DNA from: a virus
IMG/VR virus record: IMGVR_UViG_3300045988_175628
Strand: one strand, 5' to 3'
Length of the DNA: 64,000 nt
Below the pieces are notes generated by a model. It saw only the letters and a program-made list of their open reading frames with translations. It searched no databases and was not told the origin of the DNA. Positions 8,182-47,601 of this stretch are shown here, in pieces. How positions within the stretch are numbered: position 1 is the first letter of the stretch; each line of letters starts with the position of its first letter. The position numbers were made by a program, and so were the translations under genes.

Positions 8182-8803
8182 TCATAATGGACTTCTCCTT
8201 ACGAAGCCAAGAACCTTCCTCCATTGCAATATCTAGAGCTGTACGAGAAATAGATTCTTCTTCAACTTGTTCTTGAACAAGTCTACCAGTTTCATCACTA
8301 TCTCCATTTAACCAATTAAAAGTAGCCCAATCTCCTTCATCAAAAGCTGCATCTACAATTTCATAGATAAGTTGAGTTGTTTCAATTTCCTTATCTACAG
8401 TTAATTTAAATGGGGTTACGTTATCCTCAAAAGTTTCACTAATTGCAGGAATATCAGGATAGATATACGCTGCATCATTTTCATTCATATATGTACGAAT
8501 CCACGAATGATGCAGATATTCTTCATCTGCACGTTCTTTATAATACTGTTCCAAAACAGCTAATCCTTGAACTCCATAAAAATTAGAAAAGCTCATATAA
8601 AGATTATGATTATATAGTTCGTGCTTTAATTGTCTTAATAAAAGCTTTTGAATATTTTCGGATAATGTACACTTTCTTCTCTTAATGTCTAGTTTTTCTG
8701 TTGATTCTTGTGCCTCAGTTTTTGTTTTCATTGTTTTTGCGTTCCTTGGTCATGAAACAGCGTAACTTCTTATTATACACTGTCATCTCTTCAATTTCCT
8801 CAT
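8156..8803 (-). CDS. ferritin-like iron-storage protein (extends 5' through TGA codons)
   Basis: Similarity to non-haem ferritin FtnA: '…DWATFNWLNG…EQVEEE' vs E. coli 'DYPTFNFLQWYVSEQHEEE'; frame continues upstream of 8731 through TGA 8750-8752 and 8783-8785 to ATG 8801-8803. Confidence 0.65.
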
Positions 8804-12280: not shown

Positions 12281-12772
12281 TTAAATTTTACGATTTAAAT
12301 AATTACTGAAATCTGTTTTCACAGGACAGTATTCTTCATTAGCAAATAATGATGATGTAAGAATCATATCTGCAGTTGTTCTATTTGTAGCAAAAGCAAT
12401 GTTATATAAAGAAGCTAGTCGTGTTAATGCCGATATATCTGTTTGATGCCCTTGTTGAATAAGATTATCACAAAAGAAAATCAATACATCAACTTGCCCT
12501 TGAGCAATCATAGCTCCTATCATCTGATCTCCTCCAAGCGGACCTGATAGAACTGGAATTACATTTAGAGGAGCTGTATATTGATTATAATAACAACAGT
12601 GAACAGAATCATAATCTCCAAAATCTACTCTAATGGAACTAAGTAACTTAGCGGTTGTTCCAGTGGCAATTAAATGATGAGAATATAATGTTGTTCCATT
12701 AAATCTAACCCAATCAACTAACTCTTGTTTTCGAGCATCATGTGCAATAAGTGCAATATTAAGTATCTTCAT
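12281..12772 (-). CDS. mgsA: methylglyoxal synthase-like protein
   Basis: 'IALIAHDARK', 'ATGTTAKLL', 'GPLGGDQMIGAMIAQGQVDVLIFFCDNL' match MgsA signature regions. Confidence 0.75.
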   Translation of the reverse strand: MKILNIALIAHDARKQELVDWVRFNGTTLYSHHLIATGTTAKLLSSIRVDFGDYDSVHCCYYNQYTAPLNVIPVLSGPLGGDQMIGAMIAQGQVDVLIFFCDNLIQQGHQTDISALTRLASLYNIAFATNRTTADMILTSSLFANEEYCPVKTDFSNYLNRKI

Positions 12773-17482: not shown

Positions 17483-17863
17483 TTAGACGTCCTTCAAAAA
17501 ATTAAATCTAAGGACAATGTAAATTATTCCTGTTATTACTATTGCTTCAGCAAGTAATCCAATAGAAATCATACTTCCTAGAGCTGCAATAACCCAAATG
17601 AGAATTGCTGTTGTTAAGTTAGCTATATTAGTGGATTTGTCCTTCCAAATGATTCCAGCACCAATAAAGCCAACTCCAGAAGCTATCTGGGCAGCTACTC
17701 TAGAAGGGTCTCCACCTATTCTTGTAGAGATATATGTAAATATAAAAGATCCTAACATTAGTAGAACAACGGAACGAATTCCAATTACCTTGTTAGTTTT
17801 TTGTCTTTCATATCCAAGAACTGCTCCACAAAAAATTAATATAGCTAAATTAAGAAAGAACAT
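17483..17863 (-). CDS. MgtC/SapB-family membrane protein
   Basis: 'LGYERQ' motif and multi-TM profile typical of MgtC. Confidence 0.65.
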   Translation of the reverse strand: MFFLNLAILIFCGAVLGYERQKTNKVIGIRSVVLLMLGSFIFTYISTRIGGDPSRVAAQIASGVGFIGAGIIWKDKSTNIANLTTAILIWVIAALGSMISIGLLAEAIVITGIIYIVLRFNFLKDV

Positions 17864-18208: not shown

Positions 18209-18640
18209 TTAATTGACTTTAATTTTTCCATTCCATTTTGGCAAACTTTTTCCTTCTTGTACTGCTTTCCGCCAATCATGTTCATAATCAATAACTTTTT
18301 GAATATAATCTAGAAGTTCATGTCTCTTATAATTGCTCAATAATGTAATAATATTTTCCCTTCCAACAGGATTAGCAGACTGACTAGCAAACTCAGGAAG
18401 TTTTTTACCCTCATCAATACACCGATCCACAATATACTTAGCTATATCATATCCAGATTTCTCTTCCCCTAAATCATGATCTAGACAAATTGCATCAGGC
18501 CATTCTTTCTCAAGAAAATCAATCGCTTCTTGGTAAGATTGAGCCCATATTACTTTACAATTTCTACCAATTGGACTAAAATTCATCCAATCATCTTCCA
18601 TTGGATTCCTAGCGTCATCTACCCAAAGAAGTGTTTTCAT
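18209..18640 (-). CDS. receiver (CheY-like)-domain protein
   Basis: 'LLWVDDARN…DHDLG' acidic pocket pattern of receiver-like domains. Confidence 0.45.
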   Translation of the reverse strand: MKTLLWVDDARNPMEDDWMNFSPIGRNCKVIWAQSYQEAIDFLEKEWPDAICLDHDLGEEKSGYDIAKYIVDRCIDEGKKLPEFASQSANPVGRENIITLLSNYKRHELLDYIQKVIDYEHDWRKAVQEGKSLPKWNGKIKVN

Positions 18641-20212: not shown

Positions 20213-21274
20213 TTATTTGTAATAAGCATTTCTTTCAGAAGGAGACATATATTCCCATTCTACATTCTTAAACTCTTGAAGAGTTCTACATCCAGTATAA
20301 GACATAGCAGATCTTAATGCGGAATCAAATTGAGAAAGTAAAGACTCAAGAGTATATTCAACAGGAACCCAAATCTCGATTCCTTCTTCAGCCTTTTTAG
20401 TATCAGAAATGTCCTTTTGACCACGTTCACTTGCCATTCCGTAGTATAGTCTTTCTTTGGGGTACAGTCCAATAACTCGTTCTCTGTCTGCTTTAGTTAG
20501 AGACATAAAATATCTAAGCGTCTCAGGATTATCATCTAGTCCTTTTGTCCGAGTTTGCCCGCAAGCCTCCTCACATTGTGCAAACATTTTGCCCATCATT
20601 ACATAATCTGCACCCAAAGCTAAACATTTTATAGCTCTATCTATTGTAGAAATTCCTCCATCTGCAATGATTTTTGGAGCTTTTTTAGGTTTAGGAGAAT
20701 CTTTAATCATGGATTTACAATTAGATAGATGTCGTAACAACCATTCCATTGAAGCATGTATCCCAGTTTTTACTCCAGTAGTACACACACTACCAGTTCC
20801 AATTCCTACTCGAACATAATCTACTCCTGCATCATAGCATTCCCAATAAAGATCTGGATGTGCGATATTTCCTACCATTATAATAATAGTTCCCCATCTC
20901 TCCTTAGCCTTTTTGACTAATTCATAGATTTTTTTCATATGTCCATTAGCTAAATCAATAAGTACTAAAGGACACTCATCCGCTACTTCTCCTTCACAAA
21001 AGAAAGTCTCAAATTCTTTTAAACTAAATGCACACCATACATGATTACATGCATTAAGTCTAAATTGTAAATTATCAACACGTCGGGGAATAATAGGAAG
21101 AACATCGGCATCTGTAAAAAGTTGATAATTTGATTCATCAATTACAGATGTCATAGGAGCAACAAAGATAGGATAGGTTCCTAAATCTCCTAAAGGATCA
21201 CATTCACTACGACTTACAATATCAGTAGCTTTTGAACTAGGTAAAATACCTATTTCATCTAAACTATACATCAT
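20213..21274 (-). CDS. guaC: GMP reductase / IMPDH-family protein (GuaC-like)
   Basis: 'GIGTGSVCTTGVKTG', 'IIADGGI', about 350 aa without CBS insert. Confidence 0.7.
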   Translation of the reverse strand: MMYSLDEIGILPSSKATDIVSRSECDPLGDLGTYPIFVAPMTSVIDESNYQLFTDADVLPIIPRRVDNLQFRLNACNHVWCAFSLKEFETFFCEGEVADECPLVLIDLANGHMKKIYELVKKAKERWGTIIIMVGNIAHPDLYWECYDAGVDYVRVGIGTGSVCTTGVKTGIHASMEWLLRHLSNCKSMIKDSPKPKKAPKIIADGGISTIDRAIKCLALGADYVMMGKMFAQCEEACGQTRTKGLDDNPETLRYFMSLTKADRERVIGLYPKERLYYGMASERGQKDISDTKKAEEGIEIWVPVEYTLESLLSQFDSALRSAMSYTGCRTLQEFKNVEWEYMSPSERNAYYK

Positions 21275-21476: not shown

Positions 21477-21548
21477 GAGGTTCTAGAAGGATTCGAACCC
21501 TCGTTCTCAGATTCGTATTCTGAAGTTTTTCCAATTAAACTATAGAAC
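21477..21548 (-). tRNA. tRNA-Arg (anticodon ACG)
   Basis: Acceptor GGTTCTA/TAGAACC, anticodon stem TCAGA/TCTGA loop ATACGAA, T-loop TTCGAAT. Confidence 0.75.
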
Positions 21549-21918
21549 CAAAAGGTGGAATATTCCACCTTAGAATTATTCTGCTACCTTTTCACAGCCT
21601 ACTTCTGGAATTTCTGTAAAATACTCATTGTAAATTTTCTGAGCAATTTCCAGACAAATTTCGGCACTACGAAGATCATCACGCAGCTTAAACATTTGAC
21701 TTACCCACTCATCTGCTTTAAAGTCTGTGCCTACTACCAGTGATTCAGTAGATTTAATTGACAGATCCTCAAGATTCATAATCTTTGATTTAATCTGCCG
21801 AATTTCCTTTTCAATGAGATTAACTTGATCCTTTGCTGCTTCACGAGCATCAGCATTAATAATCTCTGCACGTTTCTTGAGTACTGCAGTACCAGTAGCA
21901 CTCAGAATTTCATTAAAT

Positions 21919-22722
21919 TTATTTATAAACTTTTTTTACTATTATATTATTTGGAAGTTCTTCTTTATCCCAATCCTTATAAGAATTAGAGATTGTTATT
22001 GTTTTATAAAGTTGAGCAAGCTTTATCAAAGGCTCTTTCTGAATCGCATGTACAACACACAAAGATATATCTTTAGCTCCTTTATCTTGCAGTGCCTTAT
22101 GAATTGCAAAGAAAGTTCCTCCTCCATCACATAAGTCATCAACAACAGTGATAGATTTACTTGAATCTATTTCTGAAGTAATTGTTACCTCCAATTTATC
22201 CTTTGAAACTCTATGTTTTTCAGCACAATATATTGACTCGAACATAAAATAATCCTCATAACGTTTCTGTGCTCCTTTGTCAGGAAATAAAACTGCACCA
22301 TGAATATTATTTGGAAGTACTTTTGCAGATTCTGTCAGATTGGGTAAAATTATTCCATCAGAAATTAATTTGCTAGAATGTGGCTCTATTACTGATGTAA
22401 TTTGCGCTTGTACAAAGGTAAGACATTTTCCAACAAGTTCCAAATCCAAGGCTTCATTGAAAGAAAATAATCTATCAGTTCGAGCTGCAAACAAATATGC
22501 TATTTGTAAATGAGAAATCTGGATACCTTGACGATGACAAATATCTGCTATTTGCATCAAAATCCAAATATCATTTAAATTAGACAGTCGAGTATAAATT
22601 GTCAAGGTTTTCTTCCTATCTAATTCAGTTTCAAGTACAAGATGAGATTGAGAGTCAGGATAGGTATCAATTCGATATTTTACTTCCGACTTCTCTGGGT
22701 ATATAAAATCAATTACTTGCAT
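21919..22722 (-). CDS. ribose-phosphate pyrophosphokinase (PRPP synthetase)-family protein; candidate ADPR-PP synthetase (Adps-like)
   Basis: PRTase motif 'ITVVDDLCDGGGTF'; Prs-like N-terminus. Confidence 0.65.
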   Translation of the reverse strand: MQVIDFIYPEKSEVKYRIDTYPDSQSHLVLETELDRKKTLTIYTRLSNLNDIWILMQIADICHRQGIQISHLQIAYLFAARTDRLFSFNEALDLELVGKCLTFVQAQITSVIEPHSSKLISDGIILPNLTESAKVLPNNIHGAVLFPDKGAQKRYEDYFMFESIYCAEKHRVSKDKLEVTITSEIDSSKSITVVDDLCDGGGTFFAIHKALQDKGAKDISLCVVHAIQKEPLIKLAQLYKTITISNSYKDWDKEELPNNIIVKKVYK

Positions 22723-23801
22723 ATAGAGCTGAAATTATGCTTGTAAGTTTTAACTGAATAACTACAAAGAGTTGCTAATGTATGCCCTTCACATATATCA
22801 CAACAAGTTTCTATCGCTCTTGTTGGATACCAACCCTTAAATTTGGATTGAACATGATTTATTCCATATAAGACAAGTTCTTCATTAAATTCATAAGTCC
22901 AAAATTCTCCCTGAAACAAATTATTTCTATTCGTTTCATACGGATTTTGAATTTCTTTGAATACAGAGTCTCCTACTGGACCTTTACCATGTCTCGTTAA
23001 ATAGGATCTATAAACAAAATTAATAGTTATTTGATCTTTAGTTATAAAAGAAGGTAAAATATCAGGAGATGGACAACATGTAATTGGTGTTGTATATTTA
23101 TGAGATAGACCCACATCAGGATCTAAAAGAACACCTTGAGAACCCTCAAAGATTATTGAAGTATTTGAAGACCTAAATCCATATGGTTCACCAAGAAGTA
23201 CATTAGAATAAAAGGTTTTACAATAAGTATCAACAAGAGAATCCAAGTTATCAAACACATGACGAAACCTATGATAAGTTTCATCAAATTGTATTTTTTC
23301 TTCTGCCCATTCTCTGATTAATTTAAGCTTCATTTTTACAACTTGAGGAAAAGATAAATCTTTTATATATAATGACATTCCTTCTCGTTCTCTACAAATT
23401 GTCTCCCATATACCCTTCCCAACAGTACCTCCTAGATTCCTTTCAGAATTAAGCATTACATCAAATGGAGTAGTTATTTGTACATAAGGATCAAAATATT
23501 GAAGAGGAACATCGCACCCAAGTGTCCCTAATTGTCTATATTCTTGTAACCATTGTAAAGGATCCATAACACACTTAGACATCCAGTATGTAGGAGCATC
23601 TACAAATGTACCAGAGCCAAAACAAGAAAATATATGAGTTTTCCCTGATTCAGTAGTAACAGTATGACCCGCTTGTTGCCCTCCTGAGAATCTAACAACT
23701 ATAGGATTTAAATGATTTCTTTTGGCATCACAGCAGAGAGCATGGGTAACTTGACCTTTTCCTTCGTCACCAAATGTACAACCTACTACAATATTATGCA
23801 T
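22713..23801 (-). CDS. adenylosuccinate synthetase-family protein (short PurA homolog; PurZ-like length)
   Basis: 'GDEGKGQ' P-loop, 'GGQQAGHTV', 'TVGKGIW'; only 362 aa versus about 430 for canonical PurA. Confidence 0.7.
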   Translation of the reverse strand: MHNIVVGCTFGDEGKGQVTHALCCDAKRNHLNPIVVRFSGGQQAGHTVTTESGKTHIFSCFGSGTFVDAPTYWMSKCVMDPLQWLQEYRQLGTLGCDVPLQYFDPYVQITTPFDVMLNSERNLGGTVGKGIWETICREREGMSLYIKDLSFPQVVKMKLKLIREWAEEKIQFDETYHRFRHVFDNLDSLVDTYCKTFYSNVLLGEPYGFRSSNTSIIFEGSQGVLLDPDVGLSHKYTTPITCCPSPDILPSFITKDQITINFVYRSYLTRHGKGPVGDSVFKEIQNPYETNRNNLFQGEFWTYEFNEELVLYGINHVQSKFKGWYPTRAIETCCDICEGHTLATLCSYSVKTYKHNFSSICK

Positions 23802-24685
23802 TACCGTTTCCCTAAAGTAAATAAATTAGATTTTGTTGGAATAGTTTCTTCAGAAACTTTTGTAGATATTTCCTCTGTTGCAAAACCTTTCAAAGTTTTA
23901 CCCATAGCATCACAAATAGATTCTACAACTTCTTCAGGTTTACATACAATAAGATTATCTCGAAGAAATTCTTTCATTTGCTTTTTTACTACCTCATCAT
24001 AATATCCACCACCGTGGTGAACATGAATATGAAATACATGATATTTCTCGCAAGCTAATTCGTAAGCTTCTTGCCAAGTATAATCACGTTCATATTTTAC
24101 ACCAGTCAAATTAGTTAAAGTTTCCTTACTAATCCTAGACAAAGTAGGTTCATCTCCAACAGTAAAAAGAAATCCTTTTTGGTTTCTCTTTTCATAACTA
24201 TCAATAGAAGTATGATTTCCAGCAATAATCCAAGGCAATAAATAAGATTCTCCATTATTACCACCTCCACGTCCTTCTAAGTAAATTCTAGAAAGACATT
24301 GATTAATCGCGATAGTTGAGGATTCGAATTGCCCTACTTGACATGGGCAAGAATCACATTCATGATCTCCCACTCCCATAAAAAGAATCTGAGGATGTTT
24401 AATCCCAATAGAATCAATAATGGAATCCATTAATTTAGGGAGATAATCTCGAATCATTTTATCAGGAACTGATCCCATTGAACCAGTTTCATCTAAAGCA
24501 ATAAAAACTGGAAAAGATTCAGGATGTTCCTCAGAATCTCTTGATTCTCTGATATGTGTTTTACTTTTCGTTAAATCCATTTCTTCATGCAGAGATCGCT
24601 GATGAAAAATTTCTTCTCTGGATTTTGTAGAGTAAGCAGCAGTTGTTGCTCTATATGTATTTGTACTCCATGATCCACTTCCCAT
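23801..24685 (-). CDS. von Willebrand factor A (vWA) domain protein
   Basis: MIDAS 'DETGSMGS'. Confidence 0.55.
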   Translation of the reverse strand: MGSGSWSTNTYRATTAAYSTKSREEIFHQRSLHEEMDLTKSKTHIRESRDSEEHPESFPVFIALDETGSMGSVPDKMIRDYLPKLMDSIIDSIGIKHPQILFMGVGDHECDSCPCQVGQFESSTIAINQCLSRIYLEGRGGGNNGESYLLPWIIAGNHTSIDSYEKRNQKGFLFTVGDEPTLSRISKETLTNLTGVKYERDYTWQEAYELACEKYHVFHIHVHHGGGYYDEVVKKQMKEFLRDNLIVCKPEEVVESICDAMGKTLKGFATEEISTKVSEETIPTKSNLFTLGKR

Positions 24686-24689
24686 ATTA

Positions 24690-25481
24690 TTAAAATATTT
24701 TAATTACATGATCTTTATGATAAGCATTTTCATGTAATTTTAAGATTTGTGATTCAATTTCAGTAAATGGACTCTTAAGATGTCCTGTACGATCTAATCG
24801 CTCCATTTTTTCAATGAGAACATCAAGCTCTTGATAAGTAAATCCAAAATTTTCTTCATCAGATCTGCCTGTTAATCCGTCTGCAGGAACTTTATGAACT
24901 AAATTATAAGGCAACTCCATGAAGTCTCCTAGTTTTACAACTTCTGTACAAGTCAAACGTGCAATTGGATTAATATCACAAGCCATATCTCCCCATTTTG
25001 TACACCATCCAATAAATGCTTCGGATTTGTTACCTGTTCCAGCTACTCTGTAACCCAAAGACTGAGCAATCGCATATAGAATTGTCATGCGAATGCGAGG
25101 TGCAATATTAGTTAAAGCTTTATCAGAAATTATAATTGAGGAACCATCTGAAACAAGATTAGGAATTCCTACATCTATGGATTTTTCTAAAGTGGTTCTT
25201 TCGATAGAACTCAACAGTGAGGTAAAAGGATGTGAAATATTTATTAGTATATGTCTGATATCTAAATATTTGCATACTTCTAAACTATCACTGATATCCT
25301 TTTGCTCTCCATTAGGCATTAAAACACCTAATACATTTTCTTTTCCTATAGCATCCACTAGAAGCTTAGCTACTATAGTAGAATCCTTCCCTCCACTAAT
25401 GCCCAGGACATAACCACGAGCATTAGTGTGAGTTTGGTAATTCTTAAGGAAGGATATTATTTTTTTGTATTCTTTTTCCAT
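24690..25481 (-). CDS. nadE: NH3-dependent NAD+ synthetase
   Basis: PP-loop 'GISGGKDST', length and C-terminal region match NadE. Confidence 0.8.
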   Translation of the reverse strand: MEKEYKKIISFLKNYQTHTNARGYVLGISGGKDSTIVAKLLVDAIGKENVLGVLMPNGEQKDISDSLEVCKYLDIRHILINISHPFTSLLSSIERTTLEKSIDVGIPNLVSDGSSIIISDKALTNIAPRIRMTILYAIAQSLGYRVAGTGNKSEAFIGWCTKWGDMACDINPIARLTCTEVVKLGDFMELPYNLVHKVPADGLTGRSDEENFGFTYQELDVLIEKMERLDRTGHLKSPFTEIESQILKLHENAYHKDHVIKIF

Positions 25482-26965
25482 TAAAATCTTCCGTTCCAGA
25501 GAATTTTACGAATCTCAGTAAGAGAGGTTTCTTCAATCATTTTTCCATCAACAAAAATAGGACGAAGAAGATTAAAGGGTTCCTCATGGGCCTCTTTCAG
25601 AGTCATGCCCTCATCACAGTCAAATTCGTTTGTTACATGATTATAGAAAACAGCACAACACCCTTTGTGTGACTTTTTCATCCCTGAATCTGTTTTAGGA
25701 TCTTTGTAAACCATAATAGGTTTAATTACCCCATCAATAGTTTGTTCAACATAACTACATTTAATTGCAACATTAAATGTATCACGAGAAAACATATCAA
25801 CTCGTCCTGATTCATCCATATAAGAAAGCATAGAAAATCCTCCTGCTCCCAAAGCTACATTTTCCACAGAAAATCCTTGCTCATCAAGAATTTGATAAAT
25901 TTGCTTTGTTCGTAATTGAGTAATACCGTCTCCATATAGAGCTCTAACATGAGAGTCAAGAACTTTATATCCTTTAGAATTAATTGTGCCTCCAAATGTA
26001 TCCCAAAGGCTAAAAACAGTCTCAGTTACAATTTCTACAGGATCTCCTGAATCCCCTCTAACATATAAAGTTCCATTTCTACTTAAAATTTCTTGTTTAA
26101 GACTTGGAAGAATAGTATCAACAACATTCCAATAATCATAAGAATCACTTACCATAGAAAAGGATCCATTAGGATATACTTCGGTAAGAAGACGACGAAT
26201 CATGCTAATTTCATTTCCGTCAATAGCAGCAGAGCTACACATCACAGAATGCTCTGTTGATGCCATTCCTCCTCCTACTATAGACATAGGAGTATTGTAA
26301 TATTTAGAGGCATACATGATGCCAGGAATAGTAGCAGTCTTATTGAAAGAAAGTAAAAATCCACAAGACGCCTTTATTGCTCCATGAAGTCCTACTAAAC
26401 TTCTAAATCCGAATTCAGAAATAGCAGAACGACCAGAAATATCAGAAGTTTTAGTATAGTAATCATTTACTATATTGCGATATTTAGTCACAGCAGTTGC
26501 TACACACATTGGGTACCAAAGTTCAGAAAGCATTAAAGTTTCAATAAAATTAGTACACCATGCAAATTCAGGCAAAGTATTAGAAATTTCAATACATGGT
26601 ACATTCATTCCTATTTTATATCCTTCAGGTAATGCCCAAATTTCAACAGGAAGATACCCAAGTTGATGAAGCTTTTTTATTTTATCCGAATTAACCCTAT
26701 TAGCTCCCATAGTAGAAGATATTACAAATTCGTATTCTGCAATAACTTCATCTAAAGAGCGATTAAAGAAGGTTTCGTTCATATATTCAATCAGATATTC
26801 CTTAATAAATGCTTGAATGCCAAAAACTACAACCTTATTAAATTCAGGGATTCTAGTTTTACGAGGAACATAATATGAAACTACTTTAGTAATGCTGGGA
26901 TCATATTGTTCTGCATGACACTGTTTATAAAAATCCGTAAGCAGAATTCCGCAAGGTTTAAACAT
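25481..26965 (-). CDS. nicotinamide phosphoribosyltransferase-family protein (NAMPT/NadV or Namat-like)
   Basis: 494-aa NAPRTase/NAMPT-fold protein next to Prs-like and NadE genes. Confidence 0.75.
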   Translation of the reverse strand: MFKPCGILLTDFYKQCHAEQYDPSITKVVSYYVPRKTRIPEFNKVVVFGIQAFIKEYLIEYMNETFFNRSLDEVIAEYEFVISSTMGANRVNSDKIKKLHQLGYLPVEIWALPEGYKIGMNVPCIEISNTLPEFAWCTNFIETLMLSELWYPMCVATAVTKYRNIVNDYYTKTSDISGRSAISEFGFRSLVGLHGAIKASCGFLLSFNKTATIPGIMYASKYYNTPMSIVGGGMASTEHSVMCSSAAIDGNEISMIRRLLTEVYPNGSFSMVSDSYDYWNVVDTILPSLKQEILSRNGTLYVRGDSGDPVEIVTETVFSLWDTFGGTINSKGYKVLDSHVRALYGDGITQLRTKQIYQILDEQGFSVENVALGAGGFSMLSYMDESGRVDMFSRDTFNVAIKCSYVEQTIDGVIKPIMVYKDPKTDSGMKKSHKGCCAVFYNHVTNEFDCDEGMTLKEAHEEPFNLLRPIFVDGKMIEETSLTEIRKILWNGRF

Positions 26966-26966
26966 A

Positions 26967-27548
26967 CTAGTCTCGATTAATTATATGCATTTGTAATCCT
27001 TTCATAACATCTAATGCTTTATCATGTAGTTCTTTATCATTAGATCGACAAAGACTTGCGTCAACTATAATATCTGCATTAGGAAAAATTGTTTGAAAAC
27101 TAACTGCACAAGAAAGTACACAAATATTTGTAACAACTCCTACAATAGTAATTTCATCGATTATATTATTTGTAATACAATCAAGATTAGGACCTCCTGC
27201 GAATGACGCATCTTCTAAAGCTTCTGGGCTAAATCCAAAAGAATTAATTTTATCAAGAATATAGCAAGAATTTTGAAAAGGTTTAAATTCTTTACAAATA
27301 TTCCATCCCTCTGAAGATTCTATACAGTGAATAGGAAGATATATTCCTTCTCTAGTGTTTTTATAAAGATACTTCGTTGAATACGTCGCATCATAATGAG
27401 TGTCTCTTGTAAATAATACAAGATCATCTTCAGTAAGATATTCATCAATTTTTGATTTAATACCAGGAATAATTTCTTCAGCACCAGGAACTCTTAAGAC
27501 ACCCCGTACAAAATCTTCCTGCATATCAATTACTGCAAGTAATCGCAT
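26967..27548 (-). CDS. isochorismatase-family hydrolase, probable nicotinamidase (PncA-like)
   Basis: 'MRLLAVIDMQEDF' N-terminal Asp motif of the cysteine-hydrolase family; NAD-salvage context. Confidence 0.65.
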   Translation of the reverse strand: MRLLAVIDMQEDFVRGVLRVPGAEEIIPGIKSKIDEYLTEDDLVLFTRDTHYDATYSTKYLYKNTREGIYLPIHCIESSEGWNICKEFKPFQNSCYILDKINSFGFSPEALEDASFAGGPNLDCITNNIIDEITIVGVVTNICVLSCAVSFQTIFPNADIIVDASLCRSNDKELHDKALDVMKGLQMHIINRD

Positions 27549-27832
27549 ATATCTTTTTCATTTAAAATTAAATAACTATTCTTGTCAAAAAGAATCACAC
27601 TAGAATCAGTTTGACCAATTATATTTATAATTACTTCTTTTTTTAGATCCCAAATAAAAATTTGCAGAAGTCTACTTGTTTTCTTCATAATCCAAGCTTT
27701 ATATACTCTTTTGTTAGTAATTATAAATACATCATCAAATTGTTCTAAATTTGCCACTTTTTTAAAAGATTCTTCAGTATTTTCAGTTACTTTATTAAAT
27801 CTTTCAAAAACTTTTAAGAGCCATCTCTTCAT
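27530..27832 (-). CDS. hypothetical protein
   Basis: 100-aa ORF. Confidence 0.35.
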   Translation of the reverse strand: MKRWLLKVFERFNKVTENTEESFKKVANLEQFDDVFIITNKRVYKAWIMKKTSRLLQIFIWDLKKEVIINIIGQTDSSVILFDKNSYLILNEKDICDYLQ

Positions 27833-28012
27833 CGCCTAAATTTTTTCTTTACTGGAGGCTTCCCTCCTTCTTGTTCTTTAAATTTCTTAGGCCGTTTCGG
27901 CATTCTAGGTTTATCTTCTTCACAATAATCAGGAATTTGATAATCTCTAAGGTACTTACCCATAATTAGATTATTAATAAAAGGCTCCAGTAAAATACTG
28001 GAGCCTATCAGT

Positions 28013-29740
28013 TTACATCTTAATGAAAGATAGAATCTCTTGATTCATAGCTTCATCAAACAGATCACGTGTAGTTTGTACTTTTCCATTTAAGAATGAC
28101 ACAATCTGTGCAGAATACCCAGACATATAATAAACATTCTTAACATCCCCATATGTTTGGAAAGGTGTTCGGTCGAGCTGATAATAATGATTTCTTAGAT
28201 TCCAGAGACAAACAACAAAATTGTTAATATACTCCTCGGAAAATCCTCCTCTCCTTAGTGTAGAATGAACCCTCTCTACGGAGGTCTTATTTAAGCATGA
28301 AGGATTAAACTCACAATCACTAATACATAGAATTCCTTTAGGAAATTCCTCTTCTGGAATACCCTGCGATTTTAGTCTAACGAAGAGATCAATAACGCTC
28401 TCAAAGTTAGTACTGCCGTAATATCCAGAATGGTCATTATACCACTTCTCTAAAGGTGTATTTCCTCTCCATTCATGAAGCTGGGCGTTTGAATTAAACT
28501 CAATCCACGCATTTTGGAATCTTCCTTTCAAGAAATATGAGAAGTATAAAGCTATTGCTTTACTTATATTATAACAAGACATAGATACTCCCGTTGCATC
28601 GGAACTCATAGAACCAGAAGTATCACGAACTACAATTAAATCTGTAGTATTTCCCTCATTTTGACACTTGTTAACAAGTGTCATAAATTGTTTATTAATA
28701 GTGTCTTGAATATGCTTCTCTATGTTATGCAAAGCTTTATTACAGATAGGTTGAAAAAGTTCATGTACAAATCCTGTATATTTTACTTCTTTTACCTCGG
28801 GACTACCAACCCACTCTTGATACTTTTCTTTAAGATTATGATTCTCTAAAAATTTTGAATGAACCAAAATATTTAAAGCACGACCATGAATCTTATCAAA
28901 GTCAATTTCTGCATATTTTTGCTTTGAAATAAGTTGTTGCCAACTGTGTGCAGTTCCAGATGCTTTCATTCTGGCATAACAACGATACACCTGATACTTC
29001 TCAGCTTCTGATCTTTCTTTTGATGTTCCATAAAGTTTGGAACACAACCACTTAGCAATTATACAATTTGCTTCTGCCTCTATTGTAGTACATTTTGAAC
29101 GAGCTTTAATTTGAGGGAGATACTTACGAACTAAATTAGTCTGAGAATCTGAGTTAAGTCCAGATAGAATTAAATCTCCAAAACGTTCCCAATCTAAAAC
29201 TCGATTTTCCCAACCATTATAAATTAAATCGTAGCGTAGCATGACAAATAAGTCCTTCCAAGAACCTACTAAGGGAATTAGCCAAGCATTTTTCCAGAAC
29301 ACTTCCTTATCTTTAGTATGTAGCCAGATAAGTCGCATAATTCCTTCATGACGTAATTCAGAACCTTTTTGTGCTTCCTTAGTGCCATGATCTTTATCAT
29401 TAATCTTACGACAAATCATTCGCAAGAAAAAGATAAATTTAACAGCATCTTCCTTATTTATAGCCCATAAAATCTCACAATCTTTAGCGATTTCTGAGAA
29501 GGGACGAATTTCTTTGTACTTAGAAGTACTTCCAAACTGATCAACAAATGGATCCCCAGTTGAATTATAAGCTTTTGCACCATTTCCTGTAAGAATCTCT
29601 GCTGAGATTTTTAATCCTGCTTGAACAAAAGTAGATTTAGATGTTGATTTACTGTCATTAGCAGTAAATAGGGTTTTCTTTTTTGCTTCGAACATCTTAT
29701 TAAAGTTTTTAAAAATAAAGCGGATATTGAACAATGTCAA
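28013..29740 (-). CDS. large vWA-domain protein (DUF2828-like architecture)
   Basis: C-terminal MIDAS 'VVRDTSGSMSS'; 575 aa. Confidence 0.5.
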   Translation of the reverse strand: MTLFNIRFIFKNFNKMFEAKKKTLFTANDSKSTSKSTFVQAGLKISAEILTGNGAKAYNSTGDPFVDQFGSTSKYKEIRPFSEIAKDCEILWAINKEDAVKFIFFLRMICRKINDKDHGTKEAQKGSELRHEGIMRLIWLHTKDKEVFWKNAWLIPLVGSWKDLFVMLRYDLIYNGWENRVLDWERFGDLILSGLNSDSQTNLVRKYLPQIKARSKCTTIEAEANCIIAKWLCSKLYGTSKERSEAEKYQVYRCYARMKASGTAHSWQQLISKQKYAEIDFDKIHGRALNILVHSKFLENHNLKEKYQEWVGSPEVKEVKYTGFVHELFQPICNKALHNIEKHIQDTINKQFMTLVNKCQNEGNTTDLIVVRDTSGSMSSDATGVSMSCYNISKAIALYFSYFLKGRFQNAWIEFNSNAQLHEWRGNTPLEKWYNDHSGYYGSTNFESVIDLFVRLKSQGIPEEEFPKGILCISDCEFNPSCLNKTSVERVHSTLRRGGFSEEYINNFVVCLWNLRNHYYQLDRTPFQTYGDVKNVYYMSGYSAQIVSFLNGKVQTTRDLFDEAMNQEILSFIKM

Positions 29741-29754
29741 TATCCGCTAATTGT

Positions 29755-30366
29755 TTACAATGAACCTCTGTAAAAAGTAATTGTCTTTCCTAATAAATTT
29801 TCTCCCCAGTCAGATATATTTTGAAGAGCATGATTTTCATCATAACCTATTCCCCAAATTCTGTCAAATGGAGAAGCCTCAACAAAAAATTTATTGTCTA
29901 GTATAGGATCTTTGAGCTTATCCATCAAATCCTTGTTTTGACTAAATTTTTCTTCTAAGGCCATATACATTTTCGATATTTTAACCTCGTCCCAAGATTT
30001 GCTATCAAAATTTTTAACTTGCCTTCCTAGTTTTTTAGCTTCTTTTGGAGTAACCGCTGACAAAATTTTCTCCGCAACTTCTAAATCACCAAAATATAAG
30101 GCTTTCAAGTACATGAAAAGCTGCTCAGATGATTTGAATACTTTGGAATCGAATATTATCCTACAGGGATAGAAATTACTTAACCAACCATCCCAAAAGA
30201 ATACAAAATTATTTGTAATTTTCATATAATTACTATTTATAAAATAAGATTGTGTGTTGTTACACCAAATGCTCAAAGGGCCTTTATTAGCATTGGAACA
30301 GAAGTTTATATACCTTGCGACCTTCTTCTCTCTTTTCGTTTTCCTACTCATCAAGGGAATTATCAC
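29755..30366 (-). CDS. NADAR (YbiA/DUF1768) domain protein
   Basis: 'FYPCRIIFD…FKSSEQLFMYLKALYFGD…AKKLGRQV…EASPFDRIWGIG' fits the NADAR family profile. Confidence 0.8.
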   Translation of the reverse strand: MIIPLMSRKTKREKKVARYINFCSNANKGPLSIWCNNTQSYFINSNYMKITNNFVFFWDGWLSNFYPCRIIFDSKVFKSSEQLFMYLKALYFGDLEVAEKILSAVTPKEAKKLGRQVKNFDSKSWDEVKISKMYMALEEKFSQNKDLMDKLKDPILDNKFFVEASPFDRIWGIGYDENHALQNISDWGENLLGKTITFYRGSL

Positions 30367-31217: not shown

Positions 31218-32777
31218 TTATTTAACTTCGGGAAATTTTGTTTCCTCAAGTTGTTCTTCTAATGCCTTTGATACTCCAGGAATTTTCATTTCTTTCATAA
31301 CATTCAGCATAGGTGATATTTGTGACACCAGACTCTGCATAACGTTTGTAAGACCACCGCCTTTTGTAGTGTCCATAATAGTTACATTACCAAAGTTCAT
31401 GTGCTTATAAGCTTCAACCTGTTGTCTAGCAATGTTTTCATAGGTTCCTTCCTGAACCATCTTAAACTGAATTGCAATTGCAGGATCTGTTTGAGCCGCT
31501 TCGATCATCTCACGGAAACCATCAGCCTGGGCTTTCAAAGATGCTTTTTCTGCTTCAGCCTGAGCAAGACCCTTTTGACGGACAACTTCTGCTTCTGCCA
31601 AACCTTTAGCAGTAATAGCTTTAGCCTCACCCTCACCCTTAAGAGCCTCAGCCTGAGCTTTACCATCTGCTTCGATTTTGATTTTATTAGCATTAGTTTC
31701 AGCAATCTTTTCTTGCTCTAACTGATAGGCTTCAGCACGCAGAAGACTTTCCTTTTTAGAAATTTCTGCAGGCACAATCTTATCAGCACGTAATGCAGCT
31801 TCTTGACGCTGAGCACGAGCTTCTTCCGCAATTTTCTGAGCGAGCTCTTCTTCTTTAGCAACTTCTGCTGCTGCCCTCACGCGTGCAGTATTTGCAGTTT
31901 TTTCAGCTTCAGCGCGCACAACTTCCAGTTCAGCATTCTTATCAGTTACAGTCTTCTCTGCTTCAATTTTTCCAATTTCACCTTCGGCCCTTGCTGCAGC
32001 CACGTTAATATCACGTGTACGTTGAGTTTCTGCAACTTTTGAATCTCTTTCTGCATTAGCTTCGGCTACTGCAATAGCTTCTTCACGTTGAGTTGCAGCA
32101 ACTTCAGAATTTTTAATTTTATTCTGTTCTGCAGTTTGAGTAGCACCATCCTTCTCAGCTTTAGCTATTTCAACATTTGCCTTATTAAGAGCAATTGCCT
32201 TATCCTTCTGACCTAATGCAATGATATACCCTGCTTCATCCCTAATATCGGTAATATTAACGTTAATAAGATGAAGACCAATCTTACGAAGTTCTCCTCC
32301 AACAACATTTTTTACTTCCTCTAAGAACTTATCACGTTCAGAGTTAAGCTCCTCGATAGTCATGTTAGAGACAATCAAACGCATTTGACCATACACAATA
32401 TCCTTAACGAGATCCTCAATTTGATCATTAGTTAACCCAAGAAGCCGCTCTGCAGCCATTTGCATTACTTCTGGCTCTGTAGAAATACCCACAGTTACAG
32501 TAGTTGGAACATCTACTCGAATGTTTTGTGAAGATAGTGCTTTTTGCAAATTACACTCAAACTGAAGAGGTTTAAGTGACATAAAACTGTATCCCTGAAC
32601 AATGGGAACCACAAAAGCTGCTCCACCATGAATACATTTAGCAGATTTCCCACCTCCTGTTTTACCATAAATTACAAGAATTTTGTCAGAGGGACATTTT
32701 CGATACCGTGAGAGAATTCCCACTACTGAGAGTAATACTAATAATAGAGCTGCTCCAAGGATAATAAATAAAGTCAT
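31218..32777 (-). CDS. SPFH/band-7 (flotillin-like) protein with long Ala/Glu-rich coiled-coil
   Basis: N-terminal TM, SPFH-domain core, about 250-aa EA-repeat coiled coil. Confidence 0.75.
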   Translation of the reverse strand: MTLFIILGAALLLVLLSVVGILSRYRKCPSDKILVIYGKTGGGKSAKCIHGGAAFVVPIVQGYSFMSLKPLQFECNLQKALSSQNIRVDVPTTVTVGISTEPEVMQMAAERLLGLTNDQIEDLVKDIVYGQMRLIVSNMTIEELNSERDKFLEEVKNVVGGELRKIGLHLINVNITDIRDEAGYIIALGQKDKAIALNKANVEIAKAEKDGATQTAEQNKIKNSEVAATQREEAIAVAEANAERDSKVAETQRTRDINVAAARAEGEIGKIEAEKTVTDKNAELEVVRAEAEKTANTARVRAAAEVAKEEELAQKIAEEARAQRQEAALRADKIVPAEISKKESLLRAEAYQLEQEKIAETNANKIKIEADGKAQAEALKGEGEAKAITAKGLAEAEVVRQKGLAQAEAEKASLKAQADGFREMIEAAQTDPAIAIQFKMVQEGTYENIARQQVEAYKHMNFGNVTIMDTTKGGGLTNVMQSLVSQISPMLNVMKEMKIPGVSKALEEQLEETKFPEVK

Positions 32778-32784
32778 CTTTTAA

Positions 32785-33273
32785 TTATTTGATTGTTACT
32801 TGATTTCTAGTGCCTTCCACTACAACTGTGTCGCCAGGTTGATAATCTACATTTTTTGTAGATATAGCATCTATATACACAAGCCGTCCTTCTAATTTTA
32901 CTACTACCTCTCCCTTATTTAATTCAGAATCCCAGTAATAAACCTGTGCAGACGTTTCCTTAATTACAGTTTCATAAATAATTTCCTGACGTAGATGTTT
33001 ATATATATATTTATAAAGATAGAATAACATTACTGTAAACAATACTCCAACTAAAACAGCTACGAAGGTAGATAATAGTGATACTCCTCCCATTACAGTT
33101 AATGTTAGGGAAAAGCCAAACACAAAGTGAACAATACCTTTAAAAGATAACATGTCACTGGAATCAAGATCGGTATCTGTGTCGATGTCAAGTTCTCCTC
33201 CTATAAAGGATAGAATTGTTTGTCCAATTAAAACACAGGTAGAAATTAATAGTAATAGTAAATACCAAGTCAT
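32785..33273 (-). CDS. NfeD-like membrane protein (SPFH partner)
   Basis: Multi-TM N-terminus plus C-terminal beta-rich OB-like region; directly upstream of the SPFH gene. Confidence 0.55.
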   Translation of the reverse strand: MTWYLLLLLISTCVLIGQTILSFIGGELDIDTDTDLDSSDMLSFKGIVHFVFGFSLTLTVMGGVSLLSTFVAVLVGVLFTVMLFYLYKYIYKHLRQEIIYETVIKETSAQVYYWDSELNKGEVVVKLEGRLVYIDAISTKNVDYQPGDTVVVEGTRNQVTIK

Positions 33274-35510: not shown

Positions 35511-35540
35511 CCTATTCATTGTAAAACTGTAAAGAATTTG

Positions 35541-35648
35541 TGGCCATGGAAGGACTCGAACCTCCACACACTTATGAACCTAGAATATATAAGCAGCTTT
35601 ACCACTTTGCTTACAGGGCCATAAAATGGAGAAGCAAGCATGGCCCGC
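35541..35648 (-). ncRNA. tRNA-like gene with two alternative 5' acceptor strands (79-nt or 108-nt form) and no clear anticodon arm
   Basis: 3' end CATGGCC pairs imperfectly with GGCCCTG (35613-35619) or perfectly with GGCCATG (35642-35648); T-arm GGAGG-TTCGAGT-CCTTC; internal region contains …TTCTAGG…. Confidence 0.35.
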
Positions 35649-39120: not shown

Positions 39121-39999
39121 TTATAGTGACATAAATTGACTATAATTGTCAGTATAACTTATATTTGTATTAACAAGAAGTTCTCCATGCATACTTTTTC
39201 CAGGCATAGGTACCATAAAATCTGGACCATATATACTAACTAAAGCTCCCATGTAAACTTCAGGTGCTGGAAATATCCAATCCATAAATTTTAAATATAC
39301 AGTATTCTTATAATGTTCTGCATATCTAAGACTTTGAATTTTACCTGGGAAAGTTAAATTAGCAAAGTATTCTGTTTGTACATGATTATATTTTTGCCGA
39401 ATTTCTTGATATTGATCCCTTAACTGAATTAGCCTAGAAAGATTACTAGAAGACTTATCATAACATTGATATCGTGTTTTTATACATATAGCTTCTAACT
39501 TTATCAAATGAAGTTGATGCAAAAGTTTCTGCCTTTCCTTTAAATCATCAGGAACATTATCAAATGGACAAATATCAATAAATATACCTTGATTAAATGG
39601 AAATTTTGCTTCTAAATCTTTTTTGTGAATACATGTAGTATCACTTCGCCGAAGTTTGGAACAGCAATAAAAAGTACTGTCTGTTCAATCATTCTGTAAA
39701 AAATATGGATATTTTAATTCCTTAGAAGCATATTGGACGAATTTATCATAATCCTTTCTGGGCATCGTTATATCAATATCATCATCCCAAGGAATAAAAC
39801 CTCCATGTCTAACAGCTCCTAAAAGTGTACCTCCATCTAATCAATAAGTCAATTTATACTTCTCGCAAATCTTCCTAAACTGCCATAATAGATCTAACTC
39901 AATTGCTCAAAGTTCTTTTCTGGTTTCGGATATCAAAAATCCATTTTGAGATTCTTCTTTAAAAAAAGAAGGGGAAAGTTTAATTTCTAAATTTACCAT
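39121..39999 (-). CDS. LicD-family nucleotidyl/phosphotransferase (3 in-frame TGA)
   Basis: Hand translation across TGAs: '…[26 protein letters not shown]…', the LicD signature; continuous with ORF 39121..39522. Confidence 0.75.
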
Positions 40000-40672
40000 T
40001 TATTATAGACATAGCTAAGTCTAAATCATCAGACATTGTTATTTTGAAATTCTGTAAATCTCCTTTAATATAAGTTACTATATTTCCAGAAAGTTCAAAT
40101 AAATGTGGTAGTGTCTGACAATCATCTATATTATCTATACTTTCAACAGCTCTACAAATATCACTGAACATAAATGTTTCTGGAGTTTGAAGAATAGATA
40201 TACGATCTTGAATTAATTTTGGAGCATGAATATTTTTAGAGTATTTTAGTGCACTTACAGTCTCGATAAATGGTACTACACAAGGGGTGTAACTTTTGCA
40301 AGTAGATATACACTTAGTTATAAGAGTTTCTGATACAAAAGGACGCACCGAATCATGAAACATTACTTTATCGATCTGATTAATGTGTTTTATTGCACTT
40401 AATCCAGCAATTCTTGATCTTAAACAAGTTGTACTTCCTTCTACAACAATGACATTACTGTCATATAGTTCACGTAGCCTATTAATATATTCAGGAAGAG
40501 TAACAACAACTATTACAGAAAAAAGTTTAGTGAAGAGAAACGTATCTAAAGTATAATCTAGAATAGTATTTCCCCTATATATAGAGCGATATGAAATTTC
40601 TGTAAATTGTTTGGGTATATTACTGTTACATCTACTCCCTATTCCAGCAGCATTTATTACAAGTGCATTCAT
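39980..40672 (-). CDS. IspD/TarI/LicC-family sugar-phosphate cytidylyltransferase
   Basis: N-terminal 'LVINAAGIGSR' nucleotidyltransferase motif, about 230 aa. Confidence 0.7.
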   Translation of the reverse strand: MNALVINAAGIGSRCNSNIPKQFTEISYRSIYRGNTILDYTLDTFLFTKLFSVIVVVTLPEYINRLRELYDSNVIVVEGSTTCLRSRIAGLSAIKHINQIDKVMFHDSVRPFVSETLITKCISTCKSYTPCVVPFIETVSALKYSKNIHAPKLIQDRISILQTPETFMFSDICRAVESIDNIDDCQTLPHLFELSGNIVTYIKGDLQNFKITMSDDLDLAMSIINGKFRN

Positions 40673-45773: not shown

Positions 45774-45932
45774 TTACTTCCATTTAAGAAGGTAGGCTGC
45801 GTTGTGGCGCACCATACGTTGAATACGCTGATAGACGATTTCGCCATCCTTGTTACGCTTTACATTACCCTCTGCATCGTATACTTTCTCTTTAAAGTAC
45901 ATAGGAAAAGCCTTGAAATTGATTTTACTCAT
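45774..45932 (-). CDS. small hypothetical protein (52 aa, MSKINFKAFPMYFKEK…), higher local GC
   Basis: Hand-translated minus ORF between tRNA and ABC ATPase gene. Confidence 0.35.
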   Translation of the reverse strand: MSKINFKAFPMYFKEKVYDAEGNVKRNKDGEIVYQRIQRMVRHNAAYLLKWK

Positions 45933-46761: not shown

Positions 46762-46763
46762 AC

Positions 46764-47600: not shown

Positions 47601-47601
47601 A

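Follow-up and report, generated by a model that had tools for sequence, protein, structure and literature searches.

The 64-kb stretch of viral DNA analysed here, referred to throughout as the window (IMG/VR record IMGVR_UViG_3300045988_175628, from a genome of roughly 150–180 kb), carries between positions 21919 and 30366 of its minus strand a group of NAD+ metabolism genes built around a four-gene core: a PncA-like nicotinamidase, a diphosphokinase of the Prs family resembling phage Adps, a transferase derived from phage Namat, and an ammonia-dependent NAD synthetase, NadE. We put at about one in two the probability that these four enzymes form a module rebuilding NAD+ from ADP-ribose (ADPR) and nicotinamide via nicotinic acid, a 'deamidated' form of the NAD+ reconstitution pathway NARP1. 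In the proposed scheme the PncA-like enzyme would convert nicotinamide to nicotinic acid and ammonia, the Adps-like enzyme would use ATP to turn ADPR into ADPR pyrophosphate (ADPR-PP) and AMP, and the Namat-derived enzyme would join ADPR-PP directly to nicotinic acid, yielding nicotinic acid adenine dinucleotide (NaAD) and pyrophosphate (PPi). NadE would finally convert NaAD to NAD+ with ATP and ammonia, and could reuse the ammonia released in the first step. The net reaction (ADPR + nicotinamide + 2 ATP → NAD+ + 2 AMP + 2 PPi) would require neither NMNAT nor NadD.

Close relatives of the Namat-like protein, 46–91% identical, were collected from IMG/VR and from one genome per GTDB species, giving at least 90 viral and 80 bacterial loci and 171 sequences; the best 80 IMG/VR and best 80 GTDB loci were all of the four-gene type. 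Within the assembly collection, 170 indexed blocks contain a protein identical to that of the window. Clustering of neighbouring genes found the four genes together in about 80–90% of 91 viral and 80 bacterial loci. Alongside the Namat-like gene, present throughout, NadE, PncA-like and Prs-like genes occurred in 84, 81 and 77 of the viral loci and in 73, 70 and 73 of the bacterial ones, respectively, with missing core genes falling mostly in short or truncated loci. A control set of 80 loci (L185–L264 in the numbering of compared loci used here), drawn from a scan seeded with classical Namats, contained a Prs-like gene beside the Namat-like gene in 77 cases and neither NadE nor a PncA-like gene in any. 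In the viral loci all four genes share one strand and span about 3 kb, and the next commonest family reaches only 41 of the 91. Strains with an identical Namat-like protein always keep the four core genes while the von Willebrand factor type A (vWA), PurA-like or NADAR genes found near them in the window are lost or fragmented, as also in L009–L014. The conserved unit is PncA, the Adps-like and Namat-like proteins and ammonia-dependent NadE.

Within the window, where open reading frames (ORFs) were identified by Pfam, PHROGs and NCBIfam profile searches, core gene 1 encodes the PncA-like nicotinamidase of the isochorismatase family (26967–27548, 193 aa; PF00857, 3.7e-18), core gene 2 the Namat-derived transferase (25481–26965, 494 aa; NAMPT_N and NAPRTase domains, phrog_448 at 1e-152), core gene 3 NadE (24690–25481, 263 aa; PF02540, TIGR00552) and core gene 4 the Adps-like protein (21919–22722, 267 aa; phrog_619, TIGR01251). 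An earlier interpretation, made from the letters of this stretch and here called the sequence-only reading, had named a PRPP-synthetase-family gene (PRPP being phosphoribosyl pyrophosphate), a NAMPT-family gene, NadE and a nicotinamidase in this interval, and all four are present where it placed them.

The transferase descends from the Namats of NARP1. Its best match in the PDB is the SPbetaL1 Namat (9W5X, also 9W5W; 369 bits), human NAMPT scoring 192 bits, and it is 37–43% identical to its counterparts in validated or operonic NARP1 phages (FADO, ICP1, Staphylococcus K-like phages, Felixounavirus, mycobacteriophages) 27–29% identical to those of KVP40-like and T4-like phages, and 28–30% identical to NARP2-type Nampts. 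The closest INPHARED record is a single unverified scaffold from an uncultured faecal metagenome (50% identity), all others lying at or below about 43%, and a megablast of the island against INPHARED gave no match. In a neighbour-joining tree, distance-based with 200 bootstraps and a small reference set, the window clade is monophyletic (100%) and groups with the NARP1 Namats of SPbetaL1, FADO, ICP1, Staphylococcus 812 and Krypton555, and the split of NARP2 Nampts from all other sequences has 100% bootstrap support; the phylogenetic check proposed with the sequence-only reading thereby places the protein on the Namat side and excludes a KVP40-type Nampt. The NCBIfam label 'nicotinate phosphoribosyltransferase' (NF006629) was considered as a sign of nicotinic-acid use and discarded, as the same model names both a validated Namat and a KVP40-type Nampt.

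Alignment to the SPbetaL1 Namat reveals two changes in the substrate pocket, Asp215 to Ala (KTATIPG in the window, GTDTIPA in SPbetaL1) and Ala242 to Ser. Among the 171 module sequences residue 215 is Ala 168 times and Ser three times, never Asp, and residue 242 is always Ser; the 80 classical controls have Asp (67) or Glu (13) at the first site and only Ala at the second. Ala or Ser at 215 with Ser242 thus occurs only in the clade accompanied by PncA and NadE, where Asp or Glu at 215 with Ala242 never appears, and because the 171 module and 80 control loci split without exception, pocket genotype and the presence of PncA and NadE are perfectly associated. PncA and NadE are obligate partners of this enzyme clade, not bystanders. 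In the SPbetaL1 enzyme Asp215 is hydrogen-bonded to nicotinamide, and the D215A mutant makes 8-fold less NAD+ (PMC12774641). In human NAMPT the equivalent residue, D219, determines which substrate is used; D219S is listed as a substrate switch and D219A as a loss of activity (PMC7096376; PMC4919578). Taken with the gene context, these human mutants lead us to infer that the window enzyme is specific for nicotinic acid. Catalytic His245, together with Arg306, Asp308, Arg399 and Asp400, is retained in 171 of 171 sequences. Some classical two-gene Namats of NARP1 type carry Glu215, namely the 13 control loci mentioned above and the crAss-like phage cr85_1 (L021, 4352–6677), whose Namat gene is annotated as two coding sequences (4352–4504 and 4526–5872).

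The pocket genotype bears directly on another explanation, an ordinary NARP1: Adps and Namat would turn ADPR and nicotinamide directly into NAD+, with PncA and NadE as separate additions feeding the host Preiss–Handler pathway and with pocket changes that are neutral or tune affinity. This explanation, which we consider quite improbable, accords with the Namat ancestry and the Adps-like partner, with the roughly one-eighth of activity that SPbetaL1 D215A retains (PMC12774641), and with the habit of accessory genes to join NARP1 operons, as the Macro phosphatase Adpp (10.64898/2026.01.28.702374) and RyDEP (10.64898/2026.05.28.727677) have done. Yet of the readings considered it is the least compatible with the association of genotype and context, human D219A is listed as a loss of activity (PMC4919578), and a phage nicotinamidase would consume the substrate of a nicotinamide-dependent Namat encoded in the same operon. 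The four-step route through nicotinic acid, on the other hand, would give an entire pathway starting from both products of NADase cleavage, and would explain why PncA does not undermine its operon partner and why NadE is obligatory. Of the earlier preference for NARP1 over classical NadV/NatV salvage, the part that held is the kinship, borne out by the Namat clade, by the Adps-like architecture and loop and by the lack of an NMNAT domain in window ORFs of at least 70 aa; a plain NARP1 it is not, in view of the two substitutions and the obligate partners.

Evidence for the use of ADPR-PP comes from the adenine side of the transferase. The NARP1 Namats possess an SCL loop that provides a stacking Arg, Lys or Tyr (Arg40 in SPbetaL1) and a selectivity clamp, SCH, whose motif G-S-X-phi-X-phi-X-phi-T-R-D is aromatic at positions 3 and 7. 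Of the adenine-stacking residues, Phe392 is found in every one of the 171 module sequences and Arg40 in 163 of them, and the Arg40 region aligns without gaps (PRKTRIPE in the window, PRTSRVED in SPbetaL1); the corresponding residues of NARP2 Nampts are Gly and Lys. The window SCH element reads GGF-SMLSYMDESGRVDMF-SRD and includes a 10-residue insertion, GGFSMLSYMDESGRVDMFSRD; the position 3 aromatic, Phe392, is kept and position 7 is displaced. A PDB entry matching the window enzyme at 287 bits, 9KE8, is with 9KEO deposited as 'nicotinamide phosphoribosyltransferase'; these proteins are 58% identical to SPbetaL1 Namat, have Gln and Arg in place of the clamp aromatics, and might represent an informative intermediate between Nampt and Namat.

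The Prs-like protein, for its part, looks like an Adps. It matches phrog_619 at 1.7e-38 and scores 61 bits against TIGR01251, under the cutoff of 113, as do the validated Adps enzymes of ICP1 (98) and FADO (96.5), E. coli Prs scoring 423. Hallmarks of Adps are a remodelled PP loop, the catalytic Lys185 and the loss of alpha11–alpha12 of the Prs C-terminus (PMC13586617). The window protein, 267 aa against 315 aa in E. coli Prs, is without the Prs C-terminal helices, has the Lys185 equivalent, and presents the PP loop DDLCDGGGTF, to be compared with DDICDGAASF in ICP1 Adps and DDMIDTGGTL in E. coli Prs. As a housekeeping Prs, the outcome that would have favoured ordinary salvage, it fails twice, scoring under the family cutoff and reading C-D-G-G-G-T in place of D-[ST]-[AG]-G-T. 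Its PP loop is of the Adps type, and the canonical D-T-G-G-T motif was never seen in its place. The nearest phage homologue (160 bits) is encoded directly 3' of the Nampt-like gene of phage cr85_1, where this type of Prs-like gene belongs to a two-gene, NARP1-style pair.

The best PDB matches of the PncA-like protein are nicotinamidases (2H0R, yeast Pnc1; 1ILW, P. horikoshii PncA), and the catalytic Asp (VIDMQEDF), Lys and Cys (VTNICV) as well as the metal ligands (RDTH, IHC) are kept across viral and bacterial module members, all of these signature residues being present in the window; it is nonetheless a divergent family member, at 26.7 bits on an NCBIfam PncA model with a cutoff of 174. NadE matches PF02540 at 186 bits and TIGR00552 at 185.5 bits (cutoff 63.65), is a single domain without glutaminase, and is matched best in the PDB by two entries that bear the name NH3-dependent NAD+ synthetase, 2E18 (124 bits) and 3FIU (113 bits); in seven bacterial loci a glutaminase-fused NadE takes the place of the single-domain form. 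No NadD, NMNAT or PncB is conserved near the module in the viral or bacterial loci. Among window ORFs of at least 70 aa no Pfam domain of NMNAT, NadD, Nudix, PnuC or NadR was found, CTP_transf_like included, which agrees with the sequence-only reading that no NMNAT is evident and covers, for the window, the NMNAT/Nudix search it had proposed.

The main rival to the four-step reading, and an unlikely one, is a PRPP-based boost of the Preiss–Handler pathway, in which the Prs-like protein is a PRPP synthase, the Ala215 enzyme takes the role of PncB and makes nicotinic acid mononucleotide (NaMN) from nicotinic acid and PRPP, host NadD and phage NadE complete the synthesis, and PncA supplies the nicotinic acid. 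Any nicotinic-acid route would account equally well for D215A, A242S and the obligate PncA and NadE, the clamp motif is disrupted by its insertion, and the hosts would presumably provide NadD. Both Namat and the KVP40 Nampt are able to use PRPP (PMC12774641; 10.1101/2024.02.11.579819), and the pairing of prs with nadV was first interpreted as a means of PRPP supply (PMC2330246). Against such a route stand the retention of Phe392 and Arg40 across a clade only about 50% identical, when PRPP-type NARP2 Nampts carry Gly and Lys, and the Prs-like partner with its Adps loop and its sub-cutoff score, in both of which it resembles validated Adps. The clade is moreover nested among Namats that use ADPR-PP, the bacterial operon carries an ADPR-responsive NrtR (see below), and a PRPP route would leave the pathway lacking one part, NadD, in about 170 loci. 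The persistence of the adenine-contact residues and the ADPR-sensing control in bacteria would both be explained by the four-step reading.

Several points nevertheless weigh against that reading. Across the clade the SCH clamp motif is broken by an insertion of 9–50 residues and the second aromatic, Tyr396, is unaligned, so that use of ADPR-PP is not assured, and Namat accepts PRPP as well in vitro (PMC12774641). Replacement of Asp215 by Ala removes a negative charge without offering an obvious positive partner for the carboxylate of nicotinic acid. Raw similarity cannot cleanly separate Prs from Adps, the window protein matching M. jannaschii Prs at 52 bits and FADO Adps at 43, and ICP1 Adps itself matching canonical Prs at 36–59 bits. 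The second-best structural match of NadE, 3FIU, is what we take to be a Francisella NadE that prefers NaMN. NadD is to our knowledge near-universal in bacteria, which makes its absence from the operon weak evidence, and the window, at 64 kb, represents only part of a genome of roughly 170 kb. Finally, a deamidated detour costs one extra ATP for no evident advantage.

Placed among known systems, the module is nearest to NARP1, operationally defined by an Adps-clade Prs homologue within 10 genes of a Namat homologue (Osterman et al.); here a distance of three genes separates the Prs-like from the Nampt-like gene, and both belong to a single tightly packed operon. With the NARP1 of SPbetaL1, Bas63, FADO and ICP1 it shares a Prs-derived diphosphokinase and a Nampt-derived transferase a few genes apart, a transferase on the Namat side of the tree with the same catalytic His, Arg306, Asp308, Arg399, Asp400, Arg40 and Phe392, and an Adps-type PP loop with C-terminal truncation. 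It departs from them in Ala215 and Ser242, in the interrupted GSXxXxXxTRD motif, in its obligate PncA and NadE, and in the predicted product of the transferase, NaAD instead of NAD+. Extended operons in which an extra enzyme supplies ADPR are known from NARP1-AP (Adps, the Macro phosphatase Adpp and Namat) and RyDEP-NARP1. In related viral loci a Macro ORF placed between the genes for the Namat-like protein and NadE recalls Adpp, and NADAR holds a comparable position in the window, which has neither Macro nor RyR. Whereas these known extensions feed the ADPR side only, the window module would reroute the pyridine side as well.

The Preiss–Handler operon pncA-pncB-nadD-nadE of the NrtR regulon in Clostridium acetobutylicum resembles the module in having PncA first and NadE last, in the NrtR of the bacterial versions and in converging on NaAD, the difference being that the module replaces pncB and nadD by the Adps-like and Namat-like genes and would draw on recycled ADPR rather than on PRPP and ATP (PMC2330246). 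Chromosomal nrtR-prs-nadV operons of Shewanella, Acinetobacter and Cytophaga likewise pair Prs-like and Nampt-like genes under an ADPR-responsive NrtR, but are two-gene units without PncA or NadE (PMC2330246). Bacterial NARP1 of Paenibacillus foliorum is a chromosomal pair of demonstrated activity, although the pair tested remade NAD+ from ADPR and nicotinamide. NARP2 (KVP40 Nampt and Nmnat) and NARP3, a PnuC-like transporter with a NadR-like bifunctional enzyme (PMC13464706), are phage-encoded means of rebuilding NAD+ as well; unlike NARP2, the window has a transferase outside the NARP2 Nampt clade and no Nmnat Pfam domain in the ORFs searched within its 64 kb, and unlike NARP3 it has no PnuC or NadR domain in them. 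A full-text search of the literature found no paper linking NARP1 or ADPR-PP with NadE, PncA, nicotinic acid or NaAD.

The bacterial carriers of the module are mostly gut Clostridia (Lachnospiraceae, Ruminococcus, Oscillospiraceae), including the isolates Dysosmobacter segnis and Pseudoruminococcus massiliensis, and their operons are chromosomal, in non-conserved and apparently non-phage settings. NrtR, with its NUDIX and NrtR_WHD domains, ends the operon in 50–55 of the 80 bacterial loci and occurs in none of the 91 viral ones. This regulator was first found beside prs-nadV and pncA-pncB-nadD-nadE operons, and in vitro several metabolites related to NAD detach it from DNA, ADPR being the most effective (PMC2330246). 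As the bacterial operon ends with an ADPR-responsive NrtR, the module is not solely an anti-defence device, and in gut bacteria the same operon would serve housekeeping recycling of ADPR and nicotinamide. The designation 'anti-defence island' in the sequence-only reading therefore captures a part of the module's biology and misses its existence as a chromosomal, NrtR-linked operon.

These settings bring in another alternative, in which the module is an auxiliary metabolic one of general use that came from Clostridia-type hosts and raises NAD+ for phage replication irrespective of host immunity; we regard it as somewhat doubtful. It fits the presence of the same operon, with a regulator of its own, on the chromosomes of many gut bacteria, and the abundance of metabolic genes in the window (GuaC-like, PurA-like, an ABC importer, IspD-like), and there is the precedent of KVP40 NARP2, which lifts NAD+ without any defence system (10.1101/2024.02.11.579819). 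On the other hand the same chemistry would apply, so that an anti-defence role would still be possible, and NARP1 and NARP2 have both been shown to defeat NADase defences. Phage copies, moreover, are without NrtR and often include an ADPR-liberating Macro (41 loci) or NADAR, both with known counter-defence roles. Most likely the module replenishes NAD+ in infecting phages' hosts, also in the face of NADase-type defences; an anti-defence role is suggested by analogy with NARP1 and NARP2 and by phage copies having lost NrtR and gained Macro or NADAR. With confidence just short of even, the four-step chemistry may be extended to a wider proposal, a fourth route of NAD+ reconstitution that would operate in gut bacteria under NrtR control and in phages, would rest on a reaction undescribed for any enzyme (ADPR-PP and nicotinic acid to NaAD), would bypass PRPP, NMNAT and NadD, and would employ NADAR and Macro as swappable ADPR-liberating front ends.

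The NADAR gene of the window (29755–30366, minus strand), named as such by the sequence-only reading, is a recurrent accessory and matches PF08719 at 138.3 bits (gathering score 35.1). Its domain begins at residue 60 and its relatives are 119–182 aa long, for which reason the true start is probably internal, at the ATG near 30225 (156 aa). A link to NAD+ resynthesis of the Rosetta-stone type is provided by a 402-aa NADAR-NadE fusion inside the four-gene operon of a Clostridia metagenome-assembled genome (L104, JAZQDA010000014.1, 3107–4315), in which PF08719 occupies residues 8–136 and PF02540 residues 146–376. In L067 and L069 NADAR stands directly 3' of NadE, in L112 it precedes the module, and in L254 it immediately follows a classical Namat; it is missing from some strains with an identical Namat-like protein. 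NADAR enzymes are reported to undo guanine ADP-ribosylation, and phages to deploy them against DarTG1, in keeping with the earlier assignment of this domain to ADP-ribose processing. The window protein is likely to be an ADP-ribosyl N-glycohydrolase that releases ADPR, reverses base ADP-ribosylation, or both, and could act as a facultative feeder or repair enzyme of the module. The Macro-domain ORF mentioned above, situated between the Namat-like gene and that of NadE, recurs in about 38–41 viral loci.

The window as a whole has a low GC content (30–42%), nearly all of its genes on the minus strand, and 20 tRNA genes. Nine minus-strand ORFs make up the interval 21919–30366, two more than the seven consecutive genes first described. 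From 27832 down to 21919 neighbouring genes overlap or are separated by at most 4 bp. At the head of this operon a 100-aa ORF of uncertain coding status (27530–27832) overlaps the PncA start; it has no match in Pfam, PHROG or NCBIfam, relatives conserve just an ORF of 51–74 aa, and gene callers give a 100–101 aa product in strain variants. Upstream of it, directly after the stop codon of a DUF7788 gene, a consensus scan identified a terminator-like hairpin on the minus strand (27982–28006; 11 bp stem with 6 GC pairs, T-rich tail) that sets the NADAR-DUF7788 unit apart, so that the interval probably comprises two transcription units. A sigma-70 promoter scan performed no better than shuffle background.

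Both proteins that the sequence-only reading assigned to the vWA class belong there by fold or motif. The 294-aa protein (23801–24685, minus strand; phrog_2971) has a MIDAS-like motif, DETGSMGS, and no Pfam match, and belongs to a large family of 4684 hypothetical proteins; its AlphaFold2 model, built with homologues from a protein search (pLDDT 72.8, pTM 0.77), has integrin I/vWA domains as top Foldseek matches (E about 3e-5, probability 1.0). The 575-aa protein (28013–29740, minus strand; DUF7788/DUF2828, PF25043 at 8.6e-12, phrog_850) contains the MIDAS-like motif RDTSGSMSS. PDB sequence searches with the two gave nothing useful. The PurA-like adenylosuccinate-synthetase homologue (22713–23801, minus strand, 362 aa; PF00709 at 1.4e-30, phrog_1211) finds no support as a PurZ of Z-genome phages, at 27.9 bits on an NCBIfam PurZ model with a cutoff of 300 and with the GDEGKG motif kept. 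A GuaC-like protein of the GMP-reductase/IMPDH family, 353 aa and without a CBS insert (20213–21274, minus strand; PF00478 at 2.5e-39, NF003966 GMP reductase at 127 bits, under its cutoff), lies beyond tRNA-Arg(ACG) (21477–21549), which separates it from the interval. Of the two genes once described as immediately adjacent to the island, only the GuaC-like one is so placed, the PurA-like gene lying inside, between the Prs-like and vWA genes.

These neighbours do not accompany the module outside the window's lineage and, having been counted as part of the island or set beside it, are better left out. The 294-aa vWA gene, a lineage-specific insert like the PurA-like gene, is deleted or fragmented in L009, L010, L012, L014, L181, L182 and L183, and the PurA-like gene is missing or truncated in L009, L010, L012, L014, L181 and L183, among them strains with an identical Namat-like protein; among the viral loci compared, the DUF7788 gene is restricted to the window's own family save for one weak match (L027), and the GuaC-like gene to that family alone. 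As neighbours peculiar to this phage lineage, the two vWA genes and those for the PurA-like and GuaC-like proteins fall outside the system. The GuaC-like and PurA-like proteins could jointly shift guanine to adenine nucleotides in an AT-rich phage.

Elsewhere on the same strand, genes just downstream of the island encode a SLOG/LOG-like protein (PF18306, PF03641; 16696–17196), an MgtC-family membrane protein (17483–17863) and a protein with a cREC_REC domain, the 'cyclic-phosphate processing receiver' (18209–18640). SLOG/LOG proteins bind or cleave nucleotide derivatives, which makes a role in signalling or nucleotide handling possible for these genes. Immediately upstream of the NADAR unit (31218–33273, minus strand) lie a 519-aa flotillin/Band_7 (SPFH) protein and a 162-aa NfeD-like membrane partner, and about 20 related viral loci likewise have a Band_7 gene in the neighbourhood of the module. 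A complete ABC importer is followed by an ion-transport channel protein (45925–49894 together, minus strand); encoded here are an ATPase (45925–46761), a permease (46764–47600), an NMT1/THI5-like substrate-binding protein fused to an OmpA-like C-terminus (47602–49128) and the channel (49115–49894). Dysosmobacter segnis (L110) has a similar binding protein at 6–9 kb from its four-gene module, as the one bacterial locus to have it in common, and the importer was set aside as a part of the module. Auxiliary genes on the minus strand include an IspD-like cytidylyltransferase (39980–40672), an MGS-like protein (12281–12772), a ferritin-like protein (8156–8731) and a metallophosphatase (7426–8181). 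A tRNA with anticodon CTA, an amber suppressor labelled 'Pyl' by ARAGORN, is located at 35540–35620 (minus strand). TAG recoding in the window was considered and rejected: 11 ORFs, PncA included, end in TAG, and TAG read-through adds no more coding than that of TGA or TAA. Of ten further large ORFs of the window that were compared with PHROG, seven had no family, which indicates that this phage lineage is very poorly sampled.

Depletion of NAD+ figures prominently in bacterial immunity; the phage answers to it known to date are NARP1, NARP2 and NARP3. Surveys of these pathways were built on INPHARED, in which the closest relative of the window transferase is one unverified scaffold, creating a blind spot for a module that is abundant in gut bacteria and their viruses. 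If the proposed chemistry is correct, nicotinate ADP-ribosyl transfer would constitute a new enzymatic activity, and a change of two pocket residues together with two recruited enzymes would have sufficed to reroute a counter-defence pathway. Many genes of gut Clostridia annotated as 'NadV' or 'Prs' would then belong to an ADPR-recycling operon, with a bearing on predictions of vitamin B3 phenotypes in the microbiome.

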